Assembly (NCBI GenBank): GCA_030167865.1
Contig: JALAGF010000066.1
Location: 1 to 64,000, forward strand
Length of the DNA stretch: 64,000 nucleotides
Direction: 5' to 3'
Origin: Craspedostauros australis
Lineage: Eukaryota
The notes under the pieces were generated by a model that saw nothing but the letters and a program-made list of their open reading frames with translations, was not told the DNA's origin and made no database searches. The translations under genes and the position numbers were made by a program. Positions 30,924 through 41,739 of the stretch are shown one piece after another (within the stretch, counting starts at the first letter, position 1; every line of letters begins with the position of its first letter).

Positions 30924-31964
30924 GAGAGTCTGGTGAAAATGAACCTCCAGTTGCGATGCTTCGCCGCCAGGATTGTGAGCGATGGTTGGAGCGCCCCTCT
31001 TGGGTCAAATAGGATTCCAAACGGTGGCACGAGTAACGTACGATGAGAACTGTCATAGACCGCACGCACGCAGATGGTAGAGCAACTAAAGATGCTCACC
31101 TCCAGTTCCGGTGATGATTGCCAGAGCACGCAATGCACGTGGGAAGGACGGTGACAGCGTGGAACACGCGCTCATCGGAGTTAGAAACGCTTCTTGGTGT
31201 TGGTACGCATGGCAACAGCAGGGACAGTGCTGCGTTTGTGATCTCTTGGTGTGTTCGCATCACAGTCGTGCCATCCTGTAACTCGTCTTCCAACGTCATC
31301 ACAGGAGGCGTTTTGGTTGACGTTCGTCGTTTGTTGTTTGTTGTTTGTTTGAAGACAAGCACACGGCTGTGCCAACACCGTGGCTGGCACGTTCCAAAAT
31401 GGAGATACTGCATTGTTGTGTTCCAGTGTGTGCAACAAGAACACTTCAGTCATTTTGTTTCGGGCCTTCTACAAAACATATAATACGTCTGTCTGTCCTC
31501 TCCCATAAAACCAGATTCAGAATTACTTCATAAATACAAAATTATCCATGACTTCCACAGGTTCTTTCAAGAGTTTCGATGTTGTTCGCTTCGACGCGAA
31601 AACGTCAATTGTGGAGCAAAGTGTTGGCGGCACCAAGTCCGCCACAATTTCGGCTGTGTCCTCGGGCTTTCCGAACAGTGGAGATGCTTGCCGCCTCCTT
31701 GGAGCCTCTGTGGTGACTGCATTTGACGCAAACCCATGAAGACGGTTACGATAGTTGCATGGTTACCAACGCCGCCTCTTTTTGAAACCTGGCGGATCAC
31801 TGCAGCCAAGCAACCTGTGAAGATGGATACTACCGTCTCCTTTTGAAATCTGGAGGATCGCTGCAATCATCCAAACTCCTCTCATAATCGGAAACCACCG
31901 CCGCCATCACAAACAAATGTTTCGCTCCCTCCCGCGCTGTTGCAAAACAGCACAGCAATTCGCC

Positions 31965-32837
31965 ATGAGCCTCCCAACCGAACCGCACGAACTCACATAC
32001 TTTGGCTTCTACGGGGGCCATGCTGAGCCAATCTGCATCGCCTTCAAGGCCATCGGGTTGGATTTCAAGGATGTCCGTCTCACGCAAGAGGACTACAGCA
32101 CCAAGAAGAAGGCAGGCTTGTACCCCACAGGAATCCCAATCTTGAAGGTTGGCAACACCGAATACACCCAATCGATGGCCATCTTGCGCTATGCTGGCAA
32201 GCTTGCACAATCGGCCGACGGAGCTGCGCCTAAGCTGTACCCCCAATGACGTCAAGCTCTGTCTGAGCATCGATCAGGCCTTGGACTTTGCTCAAGACCT
32301 GTGGTCTACCTTTCCCAGAGACAAGGAAGAGGACGCAAAGAAGAAGAACCAACCCGAGTACATGGCTGGAAAGGGAAAGGTCTTCTTCGGGAAGCTGGAT
32401 GAGATCTTGAAGCAGACCGATGGCCCCTTCATCGGTGGAAATGATCTGTCCATCGCCGATCTCAGCATTGCGCTTGCAACTGTCAGGGCATACGAAACTG
32501 GCTTCTTTGACTACATTCCCAGGGTAAGTGGACATGCTGCCAATACGCAAACCAAGAAAATGAATGGGCTGTCTCCTCAGATAACAACAAGCCTCACCCA
32601 TTTCATTGCTGCATTCCTTCTAGCACCTTTTGGTTTGACATGCGATGATGGTTTCTTCTGGTGCTATCCATCGCAATTGGATGGGCATGCCTATCATCCC
32701 CTGCACAATGCGACATGATATAGCACACTACAATGCTGCAGACGTGGGTCCAAGACAACTTTCCAGCTCTCTCGGCTTTGCTCAAGGCTGTTGAAGCACA
32801 CCCAATCGTGACCAAGTACTACAAGGGCATCGCATGA
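31965..32837 (+). pseudogene. Glutathione S-transferase (sigma-like), frameshifted; exons 31965-32523 and 32742-32837
   Basis: ELTYF...AEPI, IPIL, TQSMAILRYAGKL, LSIADL. One extra C in the C5 run at 32240-32244 gives LYPQ* instead of LYPND. Intron AGG|gtaagt...tgcag|ACG. A homopolymer assembly error cannot be excluded. Confidence 0.75.
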
Positions 32838-33200: not shown

Positions 33201-33219
33201 TAGCGCAGAGTCTAGCTCA
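33201..33219 (+). repeat. Left target-site duplication (TAGCGCAGAGTCTAGCTCA, 19 bp)
   Basis: Identical to 41721-41739 and directly adjacent to the (TA)6 tail. Confidence 0.95.
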
Positions 33220-33476
33220 TATATATATATAACTCATGGATTAAACTACTTATGCTGCAGTTTGCGCCGTAGGCGCTTTATTGCCGCCCGCTTTAATCTC
33301 GTGTTGGGCACGAGGCAGCACGGCATGATCGGTTCAATATGTATATGCGCTAACTGGTTTCCAGGTCACCACTCAGGATCCTCCCTGTCATCCCCGCATC
33401 TGATGTTCGTGTATGTCTTCATGTATGGGTCCATGCTCGTCGTCTGTGTGGGCACAGCACTCCTGCTTTCGGTACG

Positions 33477-34424
33477 CTATCTCCAGCATCGCAGCCAACG
33501 CTGCACTTCATCCGGCGCGTGGCTCGCTGGTATCCCTCGCACCCTTTGCACTTGCCCTATCCAGACGGCGACTGTCCCTATGTCGGTGGCGTGTTCACCC
33601 TCCATCTGTAGTCGTTCCCACGCAGCGCCTCCGCTCTCTCGCGTAAGTTCGGCCTCCTGTAGCCTCCCGGCGTACTCTCTCACCGCTTGCCGCAGCTCTG
33701 CTTCTGGTCCGTCCTCGCCGTCGTGCATGGCTCGGTTTCGCTGGTGCCAGTGCTCCCACGCTATCTTCCAGAGCTTTCTCACTACCTGCGCCGCCCACTT
33801 CTCGGCTGACCTCCGTTTCCCGATATCAATATAGAATCGCGCCTGTAGGTCCGTCCACGATTGGGCTATCACTCCTTTCAGAAGCTTGTCCCACCCAATG
33901 GCGTCTTGGCCGTCCATTAGTTCCGCTTCCAGCCTGTTCGCCCGTATGCGGCCCACCGGCCCCAGAGCTCTGGACGCCTGCTTCACGTTGCTCACCAACA
34001 CTTTCGTGATCGCCGGATGGGTATGGGCCCGCCGCAGCGTCCTCCGAAGCCGGTGGCGTTGTTTCTTCCACAGCTCTTGCGCTTCCACGGCAGGGCACAC
34101 CCATAGGTGCTCGTGTGTTTCCTTCTCTCCACACCGAGGACACGCATCCATCCGTCTTTCTTTCCACTGAACCATTCGCGTTCCGACGGCTGCTTCACGC
34201 AACACTAGCTTCATCGTAAGAACTCGTTGCGTATCGGAAAGCCCAACTGCTGCTCGTCGCATGGCTTGTGTATCGGCCAGCCCTTGCCCATCGTCTTCCA
34301 GTCCTCTTGCCTGCCTCACTTGTACCATGTCCGCCTCGACTTCTCCGCCGACGAGACTCTCGTAGGTAATCCTTGACCTCTTGACTCCGTGTTTCCACAC
34401 GCTCCACGTGGTTGCCCCCGTGCA
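33477..34424 (-). CDS. LINE ORF2 C-terminal segment with zinc-binding motif; same frame as the RT segment, separated from it by a TAG
   Basis: CPRCGEKETHEHLWVC and LWKIAWEHWHQRN. The reading frame continues directly after TAG at 34427-34425. Confidence 0.85.
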   Translation of the reverse strand, partial: CTGATTWSVWKHGVKRSRITYESLVGGEVEADMVQVRQARGLEDDGQGLADTQAMRRAAVGLSDTQRVLTMKLVLREAAVGTRMVQWKERRMDACPRCGEKETHEHLWVCPAVEAQELWKKQRHRLRRTLRRAHTHPAITKVLVSNVKQASRALGPVGRIRANRLEAELMDGQDAIGWDKLLKGVIAQSWTDLQARFYIDIGKRRSAEKWAAQVVRKLWKIAWEHWHQRNRAMHDGEDGPEAELRQAVREYAGRLQEAELTRESGGAAWERLQMEGEHATDIGTVAVWIGQVQRVRGIPASHAPDEVQRWLRCWR

Positions 34425-37400
34425 CTAATGATGTCGCCACCCCTCAGTACTTTCCAGGAGATTCCACCTCTGCTCAGCCAGCTTGTCTGTGATCACATTC
34501 ATGCGCTCCCACTCATCAAGTTCGTGTAGCTGCTTCCTCTCGTCCTGGTGGCCTTTGACATGCTGCCCGGTGACTCGAGTCTTCAGCTGTCGTCGCAACC
34601 TCATGGTGGCTATCATCATGTCGTAGTCTGGGATCGACGGATCAGGGTCGTGTTCCCACTCCAGCGCCTTGAGTGCCTGGAGATTGTCACAGCTCCACCT
34701 GAGACATCCATCAGACATGCCGTATCGTCGCTCCATCTCTCTCACTGCGAGCAGCGCACTGTATATCCCTGCAAGTTCAGCTCTCTGTGATGACATCGGG
34801 CCTTCACACCGGGGCGCCTCCAGTGTTCCGAAGGCCACCATTTCAAGCGACCCGTCTGTCGCCATCACCCATGCTGCTGTACCTTTGCCGTGCTTAACAG
34901 AACCGTCGCTGCCTCCCACAGCTGTCCTGTCCTTGATGCCCACCGCCATGTCCTGCCAGTCGGTCTCGCACCGGATGTGTCGTATCGCCCACGCTTCCGC
35001 GTCCTCCAGCTCCCTCCACGCATCTGCCATAGCCGTACTCTCTCTTACCATCGGTGCTGCCGCCCACTCTCCTGTCGTCACCAGCCGGAAGCCGTCGCCT
35101 TGCGGATATCCGTCTGCCGGCACACCGGCACCGTTGCCCACTGCGCCCGGGATCCTCCGGAACATCCTGCGGCGCGACCGCATTGGAACCTCCTGCCACA
35201 CTGTCCACTCGTCCTCCCTGACTTGCAACCTTCCAGACTCCTCGTCCCATCTCACCGGCGCAGCGTCGTCGTGTCGCCGCCATCCTCCTAGCCGGTACTG
35301 CTCTAGTAGGCCCCCATCCCTCGTCGTCATCGATTTGAGCTTCGCTCTCCAGGTCGCCCAATAGGCTGCCTTCACTTTCCCTACTCTTGGAACCCGCACC
35401 GCGCAGAACCCCGCTAGCTTCCGCCCGTCTGCTGCTTCAGTGGTGAATCTCTTGCCATCCGCCGACACCAGGTCGGACATCCAGAACGCCTGGAGCGATC
35501 GCCGACATAGATTCATTTGCCGCATCTCTTCCGGATTGCAAGCTGCCTCGATAACTTCCATAATTGGGCCATCGCCCTGCCGTCTCGGACGGAGTATTGT
35601 GTTCTCCATGCTCACCTCCAGGTTCGCCGTCGCTGCTTCCTGAGCTACGCTCGCCCACCACGATTGTGGGACTATCTTGGACCATTTCTCCCCCGTTGCT
35701 TTGAACAGGTCGATGGTCCCCGCGCTTGCTGCAGCGGCTTGGTACGATACTCTCAGCATCTTTCCTGTCAGCGTGTCGCGATGCCAATGACGGAAAATAG
35801 TGGCCACATGCGCCGTCAGTTGCTGCCAATACAGGTGCTTGAGGCCCAGTCCTAGCAGTTCCGTTGGCCCGAAAACGATGGTTCTTGGCACGTTGCGCTG
35901 GACTCCTGCCGCTGGTAACGCCGCTTGGAGCACCGGGCGCATTACGTCTTCGCACTGTCGCTTCGTCATTGTGGTAGCCGGGAGCGGATACTCCAGAGTC
36001 TTCCAAATAGTGTGCTTCAGCGCTCGCCATGTCTCCCGCCGACTAAGCTGGCCCGCTCTCACATTACGTGCCCACTCCTTCCCTTTCCGTTGGAGATCTT
36101 CCACCGCGTGTTTCTGGTTACCGTCTGGGCTCGCTACAATCCCTAACGTGCGCCGAGCTTCCGTGGCCTCCAGCCGCTCGATATCTGTACGCTCTTCGCT
36201 GTCCGGCTTCGTGAGCCGTATCTCCCCGGGCGTGGCTTCCTTTTTCCGATACTCCCACTTGTCGTTTCGCCAGTCGAACGATATGAGATACCAGTGGCTT
36301 TTGGCCGGTTCTATGACGCCTCCTGTAGCTTTGAGCAAGCCGTTCCAGGTTTCCGCCACCGCTTGGGACTCCTCGACCATACGCTCGTCTTCCGTGGTCC
36401 GGAATGTATGAATCAGATCTGTATCGTCGACGAAGGTGAAGCATACGAACTCCACCGTTTCGCCTGTCATGCAACCTGTGTGCTTAAAGCCGTGCGCTCG
36501 TTGCCGCATCACCTCGATGATTGGCGAGCTCACCACCACCCAGCATGCTGGAGCTGCTCCGTGTCCCTGTGTGACTCCTTGAAAGGGGGCTTCCTTGCTT
36601 CCTTTGTATGTCGCTTTGGATGGCCCGAGCATCGTCTGAATCCTGTGCTTCATTCCTTCCACGTTGCGTATCACTGCCTGTATCTGCGTCCATGGCACAC
36701 CCATCGCTCTCAGGCTTGCCGCTAGGATCGGATGGGCAATCCTATCGTAGCACCCTTTCGCGTCGTTAGCACAGATGATGCCTGGTGTGGCGTGTATGCG
36801 CATGACGTCGTTCGAAAGTCGGTTGTTCAGGCTCACCTCTTGCGACCTGTGACGCTTCCGACTGCCGTATTGTTCTGGAGCTATGAGACCGTGCGCCTCA
36901 GCATGCTTCATTATCCGGGCCCCCAGCATCTTGTGATTCATGTTCATGTCGGCCTCAAGCAGGCTGATCGTTCGGAATTTCTCCACGTTGATGTTCCCTT
37001 CCTGCTTTGCCAGCTGCACGTCTGTGCACTGTGCCCACCTTTTGAGGTTGTAGCCTGTTCGGAACGAGATGCTTCGCATGGATGTGTCTATCTTCCGGAG
37101 ATCAGGTTCGTAGTTCTGTGCTTTCCAAAGTCCAAAGTGGAGGCCGGATGGCCCTGACGTAATGCACTCGCGTGCCTTCTTCCACCGCGCTGCGTGTTCA
37201 ATTTCGCCAACCCTGCACATCTGTTCCGCCCACTGTGGACCTTGTCTCTGGTTCAGGCATTGAAGCAGCCAGTTTGTGTATTCATCTGGTCCTCGCGCTG
37301 ATGTGGTGAGGTGCTCGAGCCACTCGCCGTGGCCTTTCCACATACTCTCTGGCAGACCGTATTGGAACACTGGGGCAGCCAGGGCTTTGTGGTATTTCTT

Positions 37401-37727
37401 GCCATTCTCTGCACAAAAGCACTTTGCTATCTGCTCAGGCTCTGTCCACGTTCTTCGCTCAGCCCCTTGTATTGCCCCCGTCACCATGCCGACTCCTGCT
37501 CCTCTTGACTTTCCGGTTGCCCACTGTATCTTCCTCCAGGCCGCTTTCGTTTCCTCGCGCTTCTGTATCTGTTTCCGATGTTGACTCTCCACCGTCTTCC
37601 CCGATGCTGTCTGCTGCTGAACTTCCTCCTCCAGAAAACTCCTTCGGTACCAAATAGCGTCCCCTTTCACCTGTTTCCATTTTGTCCACGCCTGCTGTCG
37701 CTTCTGCTCGATCTCTCGCAGCGTCAT
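34425..37727 (-). CDS. LINE ORF2 reverse transcriptase + RNase H segment (1100 aa)
   Basis: RT motifs SGPSG, FRTISLLE, EQYGSR, NDAKGCYDRIAH, QGVTQG, FVDDTD. RNase H acidic residues in SDGS, RAELAG, CDN, HVKGH...NVITD. Confidence 0.95.
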   Translation of the reverse strand: MTLREIEQKRQQAWTKWKQVKGDAIWYRRSFLEEEVQQQTASGKTVESQHRKQIQKREETKAAWRKIQWATGKSRGAGVGMVTGAIQGAERRTWTEPEQIAKCFCAENGKKYHKALAAPVFQYGLPESMWKGHGEWLEHLTTSARGPDEYTNWLLQCLNQRQGPQWAEQMCRVGEIEHAARWKKARECITSGPSGLHFGLWKAQNYEPDLRKIDTSMRSISFRTGYNLKRWAQCTDVQLAKQEGNINVEKFRTISLLEADMNMNHKMLGARIMKHAEAHGLIAPEQYGSRKRHRSQEVSLNNRLSNDVMRIHATPGIICANDAKGCYDRIAHPILAASLRAMGVPWTQIQAVIRNVEGMKHRIQTMLGPSKATYKGSKEAPFQGVTQGHGAAPACWVVVSSPIIEVMRQRAHGFKHTGCMTGETVEFVCFTFVDDTDLIHTFRTTEDERMVEESQAVAETWNGLLKATGGVIEPAKSHWYLISFDWRNDKWEYRKKEATPGEIRLTKPDSEERTDIERLEATEARRTLGIVASPDGNQKHAVEDLQRKGKEWARNVRAGQLSRRETWRALKHTIWKTLEYPLPATTMTKRQCEDVMRPVLQAALPAAGVQRNVPRTIVFGPTELLGLGLKHLYWQQLTAHVATIFRHWHRDTLTGKMLRVSYQAAAASAGTIDLFKATGEKWSKIVPQSWWASVAQEAATANLEVSMENTILRPRRQGDGPIMEVIEAACNPEEMRQMNLCRRSLQAFWMSDLVSADGKRFTTEAADGRKLAGFCAVRVPRVGKVKAAYWATWRAKLKSMTTRDGGLLEQYRLGGWRRHDDAAPVRWDEESGRLQVREDEWTVWQEVPMRSRRRMFRRIPGAVGNGAGVPADGYPQGDGFRLVTTGEWAAAPMVRESTAMADAWRELEDAEAWAIRHIRCETDWQDMAVGIKDRTAVGGSDGSVKHGKGTAAWVMATDGSLEMVAFGTLEAPRCEGPMSSQRAELAGIYSALLAVREMERRYGMSDGCLRWSCDNLQALKALEWEHDPDPSIPDYDMMIATMRLRRQLKTRVTGQHVKGHQDERKQLHELDEWERMNVITDKLAEQRWNLLESTEGWRHH

Positions 37728-39073
37728 GTACCTGGTATTGACGTCCAGCTTTGCTTCTTCTTCAGCCTGTCCAAATGTCTGGACTTGACGACTTTCCCTT
37801 TTCTTCTCTTTGCTGCGGCGTCCCAGAATTGTTTCGCTTTTCGCGCCTTGTCCACTTGTGGGCTGAACGGTACTTTTCCAACCCTCACTTTCCGGCAGTT
37901 GCGCTCCGCTTTGGACATGATCGCTGTCCTTGCCCTGTCGATGGCTTCGAATTCTGTTCGTTGGGCTTCATTCATGCTGTCTCCGACCTCTCTCTCTAGT
38001 GCATGCACTCGTTCGTCGATGCCCTGTTGTTTCATTTGTCTTCTGATGTCGTCTGTGTATTTCTTCACGGATTGCTTCAGTCCTAGTCTCAGTCGGCGTC
38101 CTGTGAATTTGACATCTCTTTGTTTCCTTCTCCCGAATACCCTCTCCTCCCTGACGTCCGTCCACACAGTTCTGTGATCCCATTCATGGAAGTCCGTCAT
38201 GCCTGCTCGTTCCGTCTTGAGCGACGCCGTCCCCCACAGTCCGTCGATGACCCTGCCCGAATTCCCAGACCGATGCGTGTCCACTGGTTGATCCTTGTGG
38301 CTCGACAGCACCAGCTCGTTGAGTTCCTCTTCTTCCATCATTTTTGCAAACTCCGATCCCTGCACAGTCATGTTGATGTCTCCTCCGACGACTAGCTCTT
38401 CGCCTCTCCCGCGCCATTCTATGATTCGCCTCCGGAGGTCCGTCATCAGCTGCTGGATGGGGTCCTTGTTGGCAGCCTCATCGTCTTGGCTTGCGGCCGC
38501 TAGTTGTTGCACGTACACCGACCTGGGCCCGTTGTTGCTTTTTATGGGCACGTAGACGCTCACCACTCGTACTTTGATGCCGTCTTTCCCTTGCAGGAGA
38601 ATGCTCGCCCATCTCCCAAGGTTGTCGCTGTCTTTTTCCAGTACCCTGCTTGCTGTGTGCCCTGTTATCACAACTGCCGTCCCTCCCCACTGGACCATCC
38701 CTCCAATCGTTTCCGTCTTGTTCCATGCTCGTGCCTCTTTTGCTTTGCTGAACTGGTGTTGCACTCGTGCTTGCCAGCCGTTACGAGCTCCTGTTTTGTC
38801 CCAGTTGATCCCTACTTCCGTCAGCAGGCATACGTCTATCTGGTTTTGCTTGATCCATTGCCACAGTTCTTGTTGTTTGTGTGACATTGGGTCCTTCGGA
38901 AGCCTTCCAACGTTGAGTGTCGCTATCCGAATCGTGTGTTCTCCTTTCCTCCTTTCGTCCTCCCCCCACCTTTGACTTGCTCGTTGCACATCCGTCCCAA
39001 CAGCCGTCCTCATTCCTTGCCGCTCGGTTCGTTCCGGGTTTGGCTGCCCCGGAGCTACCTTGCCCCTTATCAT
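37724..39073 (-). CDS. LINE ORF2 apurinic/apyrimidinic-like endonuclease segment (449 aa)
   Basis: IATLNV, DVCLLTE, VVSVYVP, VVGGDIN, IDGLW and WDHRTVW are the conserved EEP/APE motifs. Confidence 0.9.
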   Translation of the reverse strand: MIRGKVAPGQPNPERTERQGMRTAVGTDVQRASQRWGEDERRKGEHTIRIATLNVGRLPKDPMSHKQQELWQWIKQNQIDVCLLTEVGINWDKTGARNGWQARVQHQFSKAKEARAWNKTETIGGMVQWGGTAVVITGHTASRVLEKDSDNLGRWASILLQGKDGIKVRVVSVYVPIKSNNGPRSVYVQQLAAASQDDEAANKDPIQQLMTDLRRRIIEWRGRGEELVVGGDINMTVQGSEFAKMMEEEELNELVLSSHKDQPVDTHRSGNSGRVIDGLWGTASLKTERAGMTDFHEWDHRTVWTDVREERVFGRRKQRDVKFTGRRLRLGLKQSVKKYTDDIRRQMKQQGIDERVHALEREVGDSMNEAQRTEFEAIDRARTAIMSKAERNCRKVRVGKVPFSPQVDKARKAKQFWDAAAKRRKGKVVKSRHLDRLKKKQSWTSIPGT

Positions 39074-41664
39074 TCTTGCATGTCGGTTTCCCCTTCTCCT
39101 CCTGGTTCTTTCGCCCTCTTCCTGTCTAGTGCCGCCTGTATCTTTGCGATGCGCTTGACGAGAGCGTCTTCCGATTGGTTCTCCAGGGTGTTGGTGGCAA
39201 CGCTGTCAAATGCCGACAACTCCGAGATTCCTGTGTTGACGGACATCTCAGATCCTGCGGACTCACTCGCCTCCGACGCCGTGTCGTCGGTCTTGCGCCG
39301 CTTCATGGACGACTTGATCGGTTGGTCGAGTGCCGTTCCTTTTCGGCTGGTTCTGTTGGTGAACGAAAACGCACTTTTGTCATCCAGTGCGATGGGCCTG
39401 TACAGTGTTCCTTCCATCATGTCGAGTCCTTCCAGCACGATGTTGGGAAATTCGTCTGCCACCATTAGCATGGACTCCACTTGGGGCACCTTGTACTTTC
39501 CTGTTGCTTCATCGTACTGCACTTGGTTGGCTTCCACTTGCTCTGCGAGTGTGAACCACCGCGCTGTGGACTGCCCGATCTCCCGCCTGCATCTCGCTGC
39601 CAAGGTGTTGACGATTACCTCTGCATGTTGCAGGTGTTCCGGGAAGACGTACGCATACGCCACGTCTGTCTCACCGTTCCATGGGACTTCTTGTTTGTCC
39701 ACGTGGATGAAGACTGGTCTCTTCGTGACTGGGTGTACCTGGTTCGCCAGATAAGTTCGCAGCGTCTTGCACGGATGTTCCGTGTCCGGCTCGTCGAGCT
39801 CCTCCACTCCCCTGATCCGCACTTCCTGCATCATGTCCAAGACAGCCTCGTGTTTGCCTTTCAGTCTCTTGGTTGCGAGCACTCCATCTGGTCCGAGTGT
39901 CATTGCCAGCGGATTCGGAACAAATCTGTTTCGGAGCCCTCCGGGTCCCACTTTGAGCATGTCATTGAACATCACACACAGTGCCTTCGTGATAGGAACG
40001 TGATACCTGATGTCGGCCTCCAGTCTCAGGGCTTGCCATGGTTGCACTTTGAAGCTTTTGCCTGCTGCTTTGTGCGCGTCACGCCTCTCCTGGCTCACGA
40101 GTCCGTCAGCTCGGATCCTTCCTCCCACTTCTCCCTTCATTCCATTGGCTTTCAGTCTTTTGTTGATGATGTCGCAGATGGCTTGAGCGTTGGCGAAGTT
40201 GCTGGTGTATGTGAGCATACCGATCTGTTTGGTGTACTCAGCCTCGTCCAGCGGGCGCTTGTAGAGCGTTTGCCCTGATGACTGGTAGTAGAAGTTCATC
40301 TGCGACCCCATTTTGGACACGATGTCTCGCGGGTCGCACGTCATGGCTATGCGGACCTGAGCGGTCACTGTCCTGCCGTTGGCTGTCATCCTCATCCTGC
40401 TCGTGTACACCATGAGCTCTCGCTCTGTCTTTGGGAACTGTTTCTCGTTGCTGATGACTTCCTTTGTGTCTTTCTCCATCCATGCCATCAGGAAAATCGT
40501 GCTGTCATGTTCTTTCATGGCCTTGAGCCATCGTCTGAGGGCTTTCAGGTACCTCTTCAATGTGTGACTTCCTTGCTTGGTTGGCACGGTCAGATCGAAT
40601 CGCTTGGCCACCATGCCTTCTCGCACTGTGTGTTTGGTGGTGCTTTCGACCGTGCTTGTGTCACTGTCGCTGTCGGCTTCCGCTGATTCGTCGCTGCTGG
40701 GTTCGTTGTCGTCTTTGCTGGAATCTTCATCTTTGTCATCCTCGCTTTCGCTGCTTGTGTTGTGTTGGAGCGCCTTTGCAAGCCTAGCCGTTTCTTTTTT
40801 GCGTGCGTCTGTGTTGTTGATGGAGAATTTGATTTTTCGCTGTTTGAGTCTTTTCTTGCTCGTGACCACTTTTGACTGTGCGTGTTGGCTTGCCAGTTCT
40901 GCTGTTGCGGTGTCCTTGGGTGTCTCGGCTACTCCCATGACTACGTCCTCTCCTTGTGGCACCAGTACGACGTCCGGATACCTGGATCCCAGTGCATTCA
41001 CTGCTGCCCTCCATGCGATCGTGATTTCTGTTTTGCGTAGAAGCCCTCCCGAATCAGGTATCATCATGTCTTTGAACACCACGTTGGGGTCTGTCGTGCT
41101 CAGGTCTGCTGCAAGCTGTTTGATTCGCTGTCTGCGTCCGTCTGCTTTTGGGACCTGTGCCACCCCGAATTTCTCCTTGCGTCCGTCAATCGCCATGCTG
41201 ATGAACGCTTGGACGTCTTGGACTGGAATCACTTTGCCGGTCTGTGCTGCTGCCTTGCCTGTCCACTGTGTTCGTAGAGACATCATTCCTTTCACTAGGT
41301 TGTGTACGGACCTTCCTTCTTCTGCCAGGACTTCAGCGTACGCGAACGAGGCTGCCGCCTTGCGTATCTCTCCTGGTAGCGACTTCCACGTGCTCGTCGT
41401 CGTCTTTCGTGCTGTCGACACTCCTTCTTCATTTTCTCCTTCCACGAGGGTCGGCATCTTGCCTGGTTTCTTGCCTCCAGTGCTCTCCGATGTCTGCTTG
41501 TTCTCCCTTGCCTGAGGTTCCTTGCTTCCGCCTATGCCGATGGCTGTCTTCTTCTGGTTTGTGATCACCTTGTTCAGTTTCGTCGCTGCTGTCTCCGTCG
41601 CCATCGTATCTTTTCTACGAGTGACACCCGTTGGCTTCACTACCGTGTCGGTGTTCTGGTTCAT
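39070..41664 (-). CDS. LINE ORF1 (864 aa), presumed nucleic-acid-binding protein
   Basis: Long intronless basic ORF between the 5' end of the element and the endonuclease. Its stop overlaps the next ATG (ATGA at 39073-39070). Confidence 0.85.
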   Translation of the reverse strand: MNQNTDTVVKPTGVTRRKDTMATETAATKLNKVITNQKKTAIGIGGSKEPQARENKQTSESTGGKKPGKMPTLVEGENEEGVSTARKTTTSTWKSLPGEIRKAAASFAYAEVLAEEGRSVHNLVKGMMSLRTQWTGKAAAQTGKVIPVQDVQAFISMAIDGRKEKFGVAQVPKADGRRQRIKQLAADLSTTDPNVVFKDMMIPDSGGLLRKTEITIAWRAAVNALGSRYPDVVLVPQGEDVVMGVAETPKDTATAELASQHAQSKVVTSKKRLKQRKIKFSINNTDARKKETARLAKALQHNTSSESEDDKDEDSSKDDNEPSSDESAEADSDSDTSTVESTTKHTVREGMVAKRFDLTVPTKQGSHTLKRYLKALRRWLKAMKEHDSTIFLMAWMEKDTKEVISNEKQFPKTERELMVYTSRMRMTANGRTVTAQVRIAMTCDPRDIVSKMGSQMNFYYQSSGQTLYKRPLDEAEYTKQIGMLTYTSNFANAQAICDIINKRLKANGMKGEVGGRIRADGLVSQERRDAHKAAGKSFKVQPWQALRLEADIRYHVPITKALCVMFNDMLKVGPGGLRNRFVPNPLAMTLGPDGVLATKRLKGKHEAVLDMMQEVRIRGVEELDEPDTEHPCKTLRTYLANQVHPVTKRPVFIHVDKQEVPWNGETDVAYAYVFPEHLQHAEVIVNTLAARCRREIGQSTARWFTLAEQVEANQVQYDEATGKYKVPQVESMLMVADEFPNIVLEGLDMMEGTLYRPIALDDKSAFSFTNRTSRKGTALDQPIKSSMKRRKTDDTASEASESAGSEMSVNTGISELSAFDSVATNTLENQSEDALVKRIAKIQAALDRKRAKEPGGEGETDMQE

Positions 41665-41720
41665 TTTTGTACTATCTTTACGTGTTTCTACTTGTTTTGT
41701 TTTTCTGGTCCGCGTTTTTA

Positions 41721-41739
41721 TAGCGCAGAGTCTAGCTCA
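41721..41739 (+). repeat. Right target-site duplication (TAGCGCAGAGTCTAGCTCA, 19 bp)
   Basis: Identical to 33201-33219. Confidence 0.95.

Follow-up and report, generated by a model that had tools for sequence, protein, structure and literature searches.

The ORF2 protein (ORF2p) of human LINE-1 (L1) carries endonuclease (EN), reverse transcriptase (RT), and CCHC zinc knuckle in that order in one polypeptide and lacks RNase H, and disabled full-length copies are the common state of L1. Ambal elements feature two long ORFs, the second of which encodes an APE endonuclease, RT, and RNase H. The study of ORF1/ORF2 coupling in SART1 is reportedly that of Kojima et al. in 2005. Ambal is a Repbase clade of non-LTR retrotransposons (listed in PMC4455052 and PMC5753468), which is given as protist-only (PMC4438587) and is abundant in a diatom (PMC12803021). 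Our literature searches on Ambal returned name listings and nothing on the junction of ORF1 and ORF2. For SART1 of Bombyx mori, translational coupling between ORF1 and ORF2 is described (PMC3894237; PMC5972666; PMC10275272), and the inter-ORF spacer of L1 is given as 63 nt (PMC5972666).

The window analyzed here, a stretch of 64,000 nucleotides at the start of contig JALAGF010000066.1, contains one insertion, full length at 8.5 kb, of an APE-type LINE with two ORFs in the genome of the diatom Craspedostauros australis (Table 1). Like Ambal, the element has a diatom host (the genome holds 92 matches to the silicon transporter family PF03842, best E 1e-247) and two long ORFs with APE, RT, and RNase H in ORF2, where the RNase H motifs are present and the Pfam score is under the cut-off. 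Unlike Ambal, the window copy is disabled, and the likeness rests on host and domain layout. The only solved relative by sequence is human L1 ORF2p, which matches weakly and along a portion of the RT (E 0.02). The EN-RT-CCHC order in one polypeptide is shared with L1, but the ORF2 of the element includes RNase H and is about 600 aa longer, and an AUGA overlap takes the place of the spacer. The element resembles SART1 in its overlapping stop-start, in an ORF2 that lies in the -1 frame, and in a constrained element located downstream rather than upstream; SART1 itself uses UAAUG, in contrast to the AUGA found here, and relatives use AUGA, UAAUG, or AUGnUAG.

Structure and state of the window copy

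Several features place the element among LINEs. The PF03372 endonuclease lies 5′ of the PF00078 non-LTR RT, and both occupy the same frame in the sister ORF2; in addition, the element has a 19-bp target-site duplication (TSD), a (TA)6 tail, and no LTRs, matching only itself within the window. The TSD had been described as perfect in an earlier, sequence-only reading of this DNA, and it is indeed an exact 19-mer on both sides with two occurrences in the window (41739-41721 and 33219-33201), as expected at the decay level of the element (P about 0.9), which is roughly 0.3% (range 0.007-1.6%). Since the sisters begin TATAAAAAC, the final two bases of the 5′ TSD may double as the first two bases of the element. 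It is called full length because its alignment to the sister contigs L013, L014, and L185 begins at the first base. The flanks of the insertion are single-copy, although the 3′ one has two weak paralogous matches, and the genome assembly yielded neither an empty-site allele nor a duplicate of the flanks.

Comparison with the sisters indicates that ORF1 is under purifying selection; it has no family assignment, with no Pfam match and no Atlas match of at least 0.9. ORF2 is divided into an EN piece of 449 aa, an RT-RNase H piece of 1100 aa, and a C-terminal piece of 315 aa measured stop to stop. The sequence-only reading had correctly placed the ATGA at the ORF1/ORF2 junction (39073-39070), a second ATGA at the end of the EN piece (37727-37724), and the in-frame TAG after RNase H (34427-34425). 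No ATG adjoins the TAG, and the first in-frame ATG of the C-terminal piece, at 34328, lies 97 nt past it with no overlap. The same reading had taken the catalytic motifs to be intact. The motifs GGDIN, DHR, QYGSRK, FVDD, SDGS/RAEL/CDN, and CPRC-x7-HLWVC are present in the copy, but it is not otherwise undamaged, as two private missense changes, N714H at 36935 and A920V farther downstream in the RT region at 36317, fall at columns that are at least 90% conserved among 79 homologues.

Table 1. Features of the element and its insertion site, in window coordinates
Feature	Position	Strand	Basis or detail
5′ TSD, 19 bp	41721..41739	(-)	Exact 19-mer match
Short 5′ UTR	41665..41720	(-)	Alignment to L013, L014, and L185 from first base
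ORF1, 864 aa, intact	39070..41664	(-)	ATG at 41664
ORF1 stop/ORF2 start overlap AUGA, candidate termination-reinitiation site	39070..39073	(-)	Identical in three subfamilies
Nucleotide-constrained stretch, candidate cis signal	38941..39043	(-)	Contains second in-frame ATG, 39013-39011
ORF2, EN-linker-RT-RNase H-CCHC, two interruptions	33477..39073	(-)	1865-aa single frame in sister subfamily
APE-type endonuclease domain	38198..38923	(-)	PF03372, E 6e-08
Private 1-nt deletion, ORF2 codon ~440 (break 1)	37754..37755	(-)	One extra base in 3/3 sister matches
Incidental ATGA, conserved internal Met450 + Thr of ORF2	37724..37727	(-)	Out-of-frame TGA closes shifted frame
Reverse transcriptase core	36267..36986	(-)	PF00078, E 5e-13; FVDD at 36434
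RNase H domain	34470..34910	(-)	PF00075, E 0.002, below curated cut-off; motifs SDGS, RAEL, CDN, HVKGHQD
Private nonsense TAG, ORF2 codon 1550, Gln in sisters (break 2)	34425..34427	(-)	CAG or CAA in 7/7 sister matches
CCHC zinc knuckle	34095..34142	(-)	Motif match, CPRC-x7-HLWVC
3′ UTR	33232..33476	(-)	Last ~115 nt kept across many related families
(TA)6 tail	33220..33231	(-)	Read from sequence
3′ TSD	33201..33219	(-)	Exact 19-mer match

Origin of the two breaks in ORF2

The division of ORF2 into three had been proposed to reflect coupling or recoding at the level of the family. This idea fails because other genomic copies carry the extra base and the sense codon: the base missing near ~37755 is present in all three sister matches (two subfamilies), and CAG or CAA stands at 34427 in all seven (three subfamilies), so that the breaks are shared by 0/3 and 0/7 sister matches, respectively. 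The fallback of the same reading, a 1-nt deletion plus a nonsense mutation in an ORF2 of ~1865 aa, is matched exactly by the sister L013, a full-length copy in the same genome that is 82% identical to the window copy and whose ORF2 is one 1865-aa frame starting from the same ATG. The comparison of copies at both breaks, which that reading had itself suggested, thus revealed a continuous ORF2 in other genomic copies. ORF2 looks three-part here only because a base has been lost and a stop mutation gained, neither of which is seen in close relatives. It is therefore highly probable that this is an ordinary, recently damaged LINE copy from a family whose ORF2 is one polypeptide, with both breaks being private mutations. 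We infer the intact state of the exact lineage from 18%-divergent sisters, because the genome assembly showed none closer than 82% overall; likewise, searches with the 5′ end, each of the breaks, and the 3′ end yielded no near-identical copy, the best match being 94% over the first 471 nt and 74-81% elsewhere. Sister contigs at 100% identity were counted as collapsed repeats and not as independent copies.

Continuity extends to more distant relatives. Among informative metagenome loci, 61 of 68 are continuous at break 1 and 58 of 60 at break 2. An exact 26-nt junction pattern has 0 matches in the metagenome contigs. A single alignment spans break 1 in 103 and break 2 in 106 of 120 database homologues. 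Within the genome, 59 of 150 endonuclease matches (a count that includes collapsed duplicates) contain no stop themselves and belong to open frames that reach 1750 aa or more. Decayed copies are also common there, with 37 of 77 examined loci, mostly picked for short frames, broken at scattered positions.

The deletion at ~37755 is the sole coding indel relative to L013. It sits in an AAG repeat within the conserved EN-RT linker, its exact position being ambiguous within the run, and it cuts a gap-free linker motif present in 79/79 long homologues. The ATGA just beyond it, at 37724..37727, is found in the intact sisters as well. When single-base deletions were simulated in an intact sister ORF2, an ATGA was the first stop met in 1232 of 5512 cases (22%), so the second ATGA is not above chance; since about one-fifth of random deletions in ORF2 sequence yield one, little weight attaches to an ATGA overlap that follows a frameshift. 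At break 2, the codon next to the TAG is also changed. The recoding signals sought in cis (slippery heptamer, readthrough context, synonymous constraint, and stimulatory structure) were not found at the breaks. There is no strict slippery heptamer, as the sequence-only reading had observed for canonical ones; no sign that synonymous sites are constrained at the two breaks (6/20 and 5/20 vs 0.32; 7/20 and 6/20 vs 0.28); and no fold with z below -1.3. A hotspot for breaks in the EN-RT linker was hinted at by the metagenome set, in which the bin of aa 400-520 that holds break 1 has 9 broken loci where about 3 would be expected (P 0.004 before and about 0.06 after correction for 15 bins), but the excess was not repeated in the genome of C. 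australis (9 vs 6.7, P 0.23). Near-stop codons and base runs abound in this region. The linker excess in the metagenome set weighs against private damage, as do two features of the window branch: methylation-type (CpG) changes show no excess (77/574 vs 75/571), and private amino-acid changes show only a small one (113 vs 102).

Two other accounts of the breaks were weighed. An assembly or consensus error at one or both breaks would leave the true locus intact and the element possibly active. The fall of the deletion in a short AAG repeat and the scarcity of other decay on the window branch speak for such an error, which we nevertheless regard as quite unlikely: the assembly contains many error-free frames of about 1900 aa, a TAG substitution with a changed next codon and private RT missense changes are not typical indel errors, and the locus is uniquely assembled because its flanks are single-copy. 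In either case, the ORF2 of the family is one polypeptide, whether the breaks are real or assembly errors.

It is far less probable still that the breaks are recently evolved and programmed, such that RT-RNase H would come from reinitiation at AUGA 37727 or from a -1 frameshift, and the C-terminal domain from readthrough of UAG. Every sister is continuous, the second ATGA is at its chance level, and neither break has a heptamer, synonymous constraint, or significant structure. Some leaky reinitiation at Met450 is conceivable, because the second ATGA has the same geometry as the true ORF1/ORF2 junction, and the slight surplus of breaks that the metagenome loci show in the linker would accord with programming. 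So would two other families in this genome, each with one in-frame stop common to three contigs, although these look like collapsed repeats. Against this, break 1 disrupts a linker motif that none of the 79 long homologues lacks, the third piece has no nearby AUG, and other copies are broken at different codons; moreover, the lineage was found once and so gives no sign of moving with its breaks. Shifted ribosomes would have to stop at UGA 37726, reinitiate at the overlapping AUG, and read through UAG 34427. That a lineage seen once and 18% from its sisters makes ORF2 as separate parts, and stays mobile with EN and RT as separate chains, is scarcely credible.

For the reading of private damage, the course of events may be outlined. 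The family would produce ORF2 in one piece, an EN-RT-RNase H-CCHC polypeptide of 1865 aa, as its frame at the DNA level indicates. Judging from conservation, ribosomes would most likely terminate at the UGA of ORF1 and start again at the AUG that overlaps it, probably aided by the constrained sequence just downstream. The window copy appears to have gained the 1-nt deletion (codon ~440), the Gln-to-stop change (codon 1550), and a few missense changes, all private in the comparison, probably during copying or soon after insertion. Its products would be ORF1p and an EN fragment cut short at 449 aa, and it could not move autonomously. By itself, this finding is of small weight because disabled full-length LINE copies are common, and the genome has dozens of them.

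Stop-start overlap between ORF1 and ORF2

The SART1-like reading of the ORF1/ORF2 overlap, proposed from the sequence, is supported by conservation. The AUGA junction is real, being conserved across many families, and it fits termination-reinitiation of the SART1 type, a known mechanism. In 15/15 “-1 frame” loci of the C. australis genome, the ORF1 stop has an in-frame AUG at its -4 or -1 position, and an in-frame AUG overlaps or abuts that stop in 19 of 27 metagenome loci; these loci are related, so the counts are not independent and binomial P values were set aside. The stop-start contexts vary (CCATGA, ATGTTAG, TAATG), and one other family in the genome has an AUG-less junction. In the stretch downstream of the junction, 18 of 20 synonymous codons are invariant against a background of 32% (reached by 0/2000 permutations), and 77 of 82 nt at 39022-38941 are identical in three subfamilies. 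The folding energy of the downstream sequence is not above that of shuffles (z 0.3 and -0.3), and a double change was seen in 3 of 30 pairs with only three sequences compared.

Alternatively, the AUGA could be a by-product of a conserved Gln-Glu-UGA ending, with the true start of ORF2 lying at the second AUG (39013) or relying on some mechanism independent of the overlap. GAA-TGA always includes ATG, nucleotide constraint is strongest around and after the second AUG (77 of 82), and a related family in which ORF1 ends Q-E/D-TAA often lacks any in-frame AUG. This alternative is nonetheless rather unlikely, as an AUG lies at or next to the ORF1 stop in many contexts among the loci counted above, related as they are. 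It concerns the start site alone and is compatible with private mutation as the best explanation of the breaks.

Stop-start coupling of ORF1 and ORF2 seems to be in wide use among the diatom LINEs of this large group, through AUGA, UAAUG, and AUGnUAG, and one family has a variant that lacks the AUG. Such widespread coupling would extend to diatoms a mechanism tested mainly in SART1, and the junctions of diatom LINEs offer a ready set of natural variants for reporter tests.

Architecture and affinities of the element

The window copy is a real, young, full-length diatom LINE with two private lesions, inserted with target-site duplications and a tail.

Features of the LINE and its surroundings in the window
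Feature	Position	Strand	Description
Full LINE element	33220-41720	minus	8.5 kb; flanked by exact 19-bp repeats
Target-site duplications	41739-41721 and 33219-33201	minus	exact 19 bp
ORF1	41664 to TGA 39072-39070	minus	864 aa
ATGA overlaps	39073-39070 and 37727-37724	minus
In-frame TAG	34427-34425	minus
End of 3′ UTR	33232-33350	minus	last ~115 nt
(TA)6 tail	3′ end of element	minus
Glutathione S-transferase gene	31821-32718	plus	~500 bp from element's 3′ end

The features picked out by the sequence-only reading are all present: the 19-mer of the duplication occurs twice in the entire window and no more, both ATGA overlaps and the TAG are in place, and the catalytic motifs are accompanied by a CCHC knuckle and by Pfam matches to APE endonuclease, RVT_1 and, weakly, RNase H. 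The frames 3′ of ORF1 measure 449, 1100 and 315 aa. The element is an APE-type LINE, with human L1 ORF2p as the nearest solved structure to ORF2 (E 0.02). It resembles an Ambal element in host and in domain order, with APE, RT and RNase H in ORF2. The papers found give Ambal by name only (PMC4455052, PMC5753468, PMC4438587, PMC12803021) or, in one case, mention RTE-like elements only (PMC2806351).

The ORF1 protein is conserved and under selection, and Pfam and Atlas searches gave it no assignment. The end of the 3′ UTR is 74-82% conserved among families with far-apart coding regions and is a candidate RT recognition structure. The neighboring glutathione S-transferase gene, which has two paralogous loci elsewhere (L073 and L074), does not appear to have been hit by the insertion. 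A diatom host is supported by 92 silicon-transporter matches in the genome assembly (G000), about nine of them near full length. Model diatoms carry a handful of these transporters, fewer than in G000; gene expansion, alleles and a mixed assembly are candidate sources of the surplus.

Continuity of ORF2 in the family and damage in the window copy

The split of ORF2 had been proposed as a family trait, with a 1-nt deletion and a nonsense mutation in a ~1865-aa ORF2 as the fallback, and it is the fallback that is borne out. The family ORF2 is one frame. The sister L013 (G000:C3910), a full element 82% identical to the window copy, has an ORF2 of exactly 1865 aa starting at the same ATG, and the sole coding indel between the two is 1 nt at about 37755. 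In the own-genome alignments that the sequence-only reading had called for, all 3 other matches at this first break are longer by 1 base, and all 7 at the second carry CAG or CAA in place of TAG; since several of these contigs, at 99-100% identity, have the appearance of collapsed repeats, the honest count is two and three subfamilies, respectively. Among 150 scored endonuclease matches in the same genome, 62 fall within frames with a listed length of ≥1750 aa, and 59 of these have no stop inside the match. A single alignment spans the first break in 103 and the second in 106 of the 120 protein homologues listed, although that search cannot reveal split forms because it admits only proteins of 1025-3264 aa. 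The unbiased DNA check, on 80 metagenome loci, found ±60 aa around the first break continuous in 61/68 informative loci and the region of the second in 58/60. The two internal breaks are found in the window copy only and are no family trait.

Production of ORF2 as separate EN, RT-RNase H and C-terminal parts by coupling or readthrough is therefore very improbable. The second ATGA, on which such coupling would depend, consists of a conserved internal Met450 and the Thr after it, and intact sisters have the same ATGA; this motif is the joint commonest origin of out-of-frame stops in ORF2 (22/96), and in 22% of simulated single-base deletions (1232/5512) it is the first stop encountered. No strict slippery heptamer occurs in the overlap, where the sequence-only reading had seen no canonical one. 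The nearest in-frame ATG 3′ of the TAG is 97 nt distant. Synonymous sites near the two breaks are invariant at background rate (6/20 and 5/20 vs 0.32; in further comparisons, 7/20 and 6/20 vs 0.28, and 5/20 and 4/20 vs 0.27), and none of five folds around the breaks is better than shuffles (z -1.28 to 0.73). The first break also lies off the domain edges, ~140 aa past the EN domain and 250 aa ahead of the RT core, inside a linker motif conserved without gaps in 79/79 long homologues. Because the breaks are not common to family members and no cis signal was found at them, the element belongs to no recoded-ORF2 class.

Some results sit less easily with private lesions. No relative closer than 82% overall was found in the genome searches, so the copy is a singleton whose parent is unseen; the breaks may be an assembly error, and the window branch has no CpG-type excess. 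The metagenome loci, chosen on intact RT motifs, include 9 broken at codons 400-520, where about 3 would be expected; P is 0.004 uncorrected and about 0.06 once all 15 bins are counted. The codons differ between loci, near-stop codons and base runs abound in this region, and the excess is not repeated in the own genome (9 vs 6.7, P 0.23). In two other families an otherwise full ORF2 has one in-frame stop that three contigs have in common, a TAG at aa ~419 in L175-L177 (G000:C2450, C3349, C3350) and a TGA at aa ~290 in L246, L248 and L249 (G000:C3848, C5939, C6441). Each trio is probably a collapsed repeat, since the stretch that its contigs share shows 100% identity and breaks off where contigs end; a stop-bearing copy may have spread in these families, and L175-L177 show at least two different 3′ flanks.

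Private lesions also agree with the age of the copy. Private changes in ORF1 and ORF2 are similar on the window and sister branches (amino-acid, 113 vs 102; synonymous, 250 vs 259), and the lineage was therefore under selection almost until now. Among 157 columns conserved at ≥90%, the window copy alone departs at 3 and the sister at 0; N714H and A920V are clearly private, and the third column varies in the outgroup as well. The neutral divergence equivalent to one nonsense change is ~0.3% (0.007-1.6%); at that level a 19-bp duplication would still be perfect with a probability of about 0.9, so that the earlier description of the copy as young-looking is compatible with its being broken. Decayed relatives are common, with breaks at scattered codons in 37 of 77 own-genome loci, mostly picked for short frames. 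The element would have been placed by target-primed insertion, with the two lesions arising during insertion or soon after; the copy would yield ORF1p and a truncated EN fragment, and would be mobile at most in trans.

The LINE group is very large in G000 (205 endonuclease candidates). It includes a ~5-kb internally deleted derivative of the window family (L252-L255; G000:C5416:19470-24440, C1367, C4658, C6691) in which ORF1 has lost its end and ORF2 its aa 1-1104, and with them the whole of EN and RT. At least 4 decayed copies, 91-95% identical, have common flanks on both sides, and at least 10 3′ ends run into one and the same sequence downstream, a pattern suggestive of amplification as part of a larger repeat. 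Matching 13-14-bp flanks pair L185 with L251/L023 (G000:C3308, C3911), and L015 with L027 (G000:C3932, C2103); the contigs of each pair are opposite ends of one full-length sister insertion. Target sites differ, indicating no obvious target specificity.

The ORF1/ORF2 junction and its variants

The AUGA at the ORF1/ORF2 junction is conserved, with constraint downstream. The junction sequence CAAGAATGATAA is the same in three subfamilies 75-82% alike, the highest synonymous invariance in aligned ORF2 lies just downstream at 39043-38971 (18/20 against a background of 0.32; matched by 0/2000 permutations), and 77/82 bases at 39022-38941 are the same in all three. In the 31 loci compared within the own genome, with EN identities as low as about 27%, ORF2 is in the -1 frame in 15, +1 in 14 and in frame in 1, with no usable ORF1 in the last; in all 15 -1 loci an in-frame AUG overlaps or abuts the ORF1 stop (10 AUGA, 5 AUGnUAG). 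ORF1 is detectable in 46/80 metagenome loci and ORF2 is -1 in 27 of these, 19 of which have AUGA (7), UAAUG (8) or an AUG 5 nt on (4). As the loci are related, these counts measure breadth and are not independent trials.

The likeness to SART1 raised by the sequence-only reading thus gains from the comparison, and the junction fits coupled termination-reinitiation of that type, by which ORF2 would be produced via reinitiation at the ORF1 stop. In SART1 a required element lies downstream (PMC3894237, PMC10275272, PMC5972666), and the constrained stretch of the window LINE is likewise downstream of the stop-start. Folds of this stretch are no better than shuffles (z 0.3 and -0.3), and 3 of 30 pairs have a double change among only three sequences. 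ORF2 may instead start at a second in-frame AUG, at 39013.

A related family with ~43% EN identity (L046, L049, L051, L055, L058, L059, L065, L066, L075, L077; for example L049:2272-2431, minus strand, G000:C3307) has ORF2 in the +1 frame, ORF1 ending in E/D-TAA/TAG, and a conserved indel-free stretch of ~50 nt after that end. Of the 10 loci, 5 have ACG as the next codon, 3 have ACA and 2 have ATG; 4 loci have no in-frame ATG ahead of the endonuclease, and the family includes several intact frames of 1894-1930 aa. Non-AUG reinitiation and a +1 frameshift are both candidates at this junction, and codon-position variability favors neither over the other. What is of lasting value in the window element is its conserved coupling site between ORF1 and ORF2, together with the variants of that site in the rest of the LINE group.
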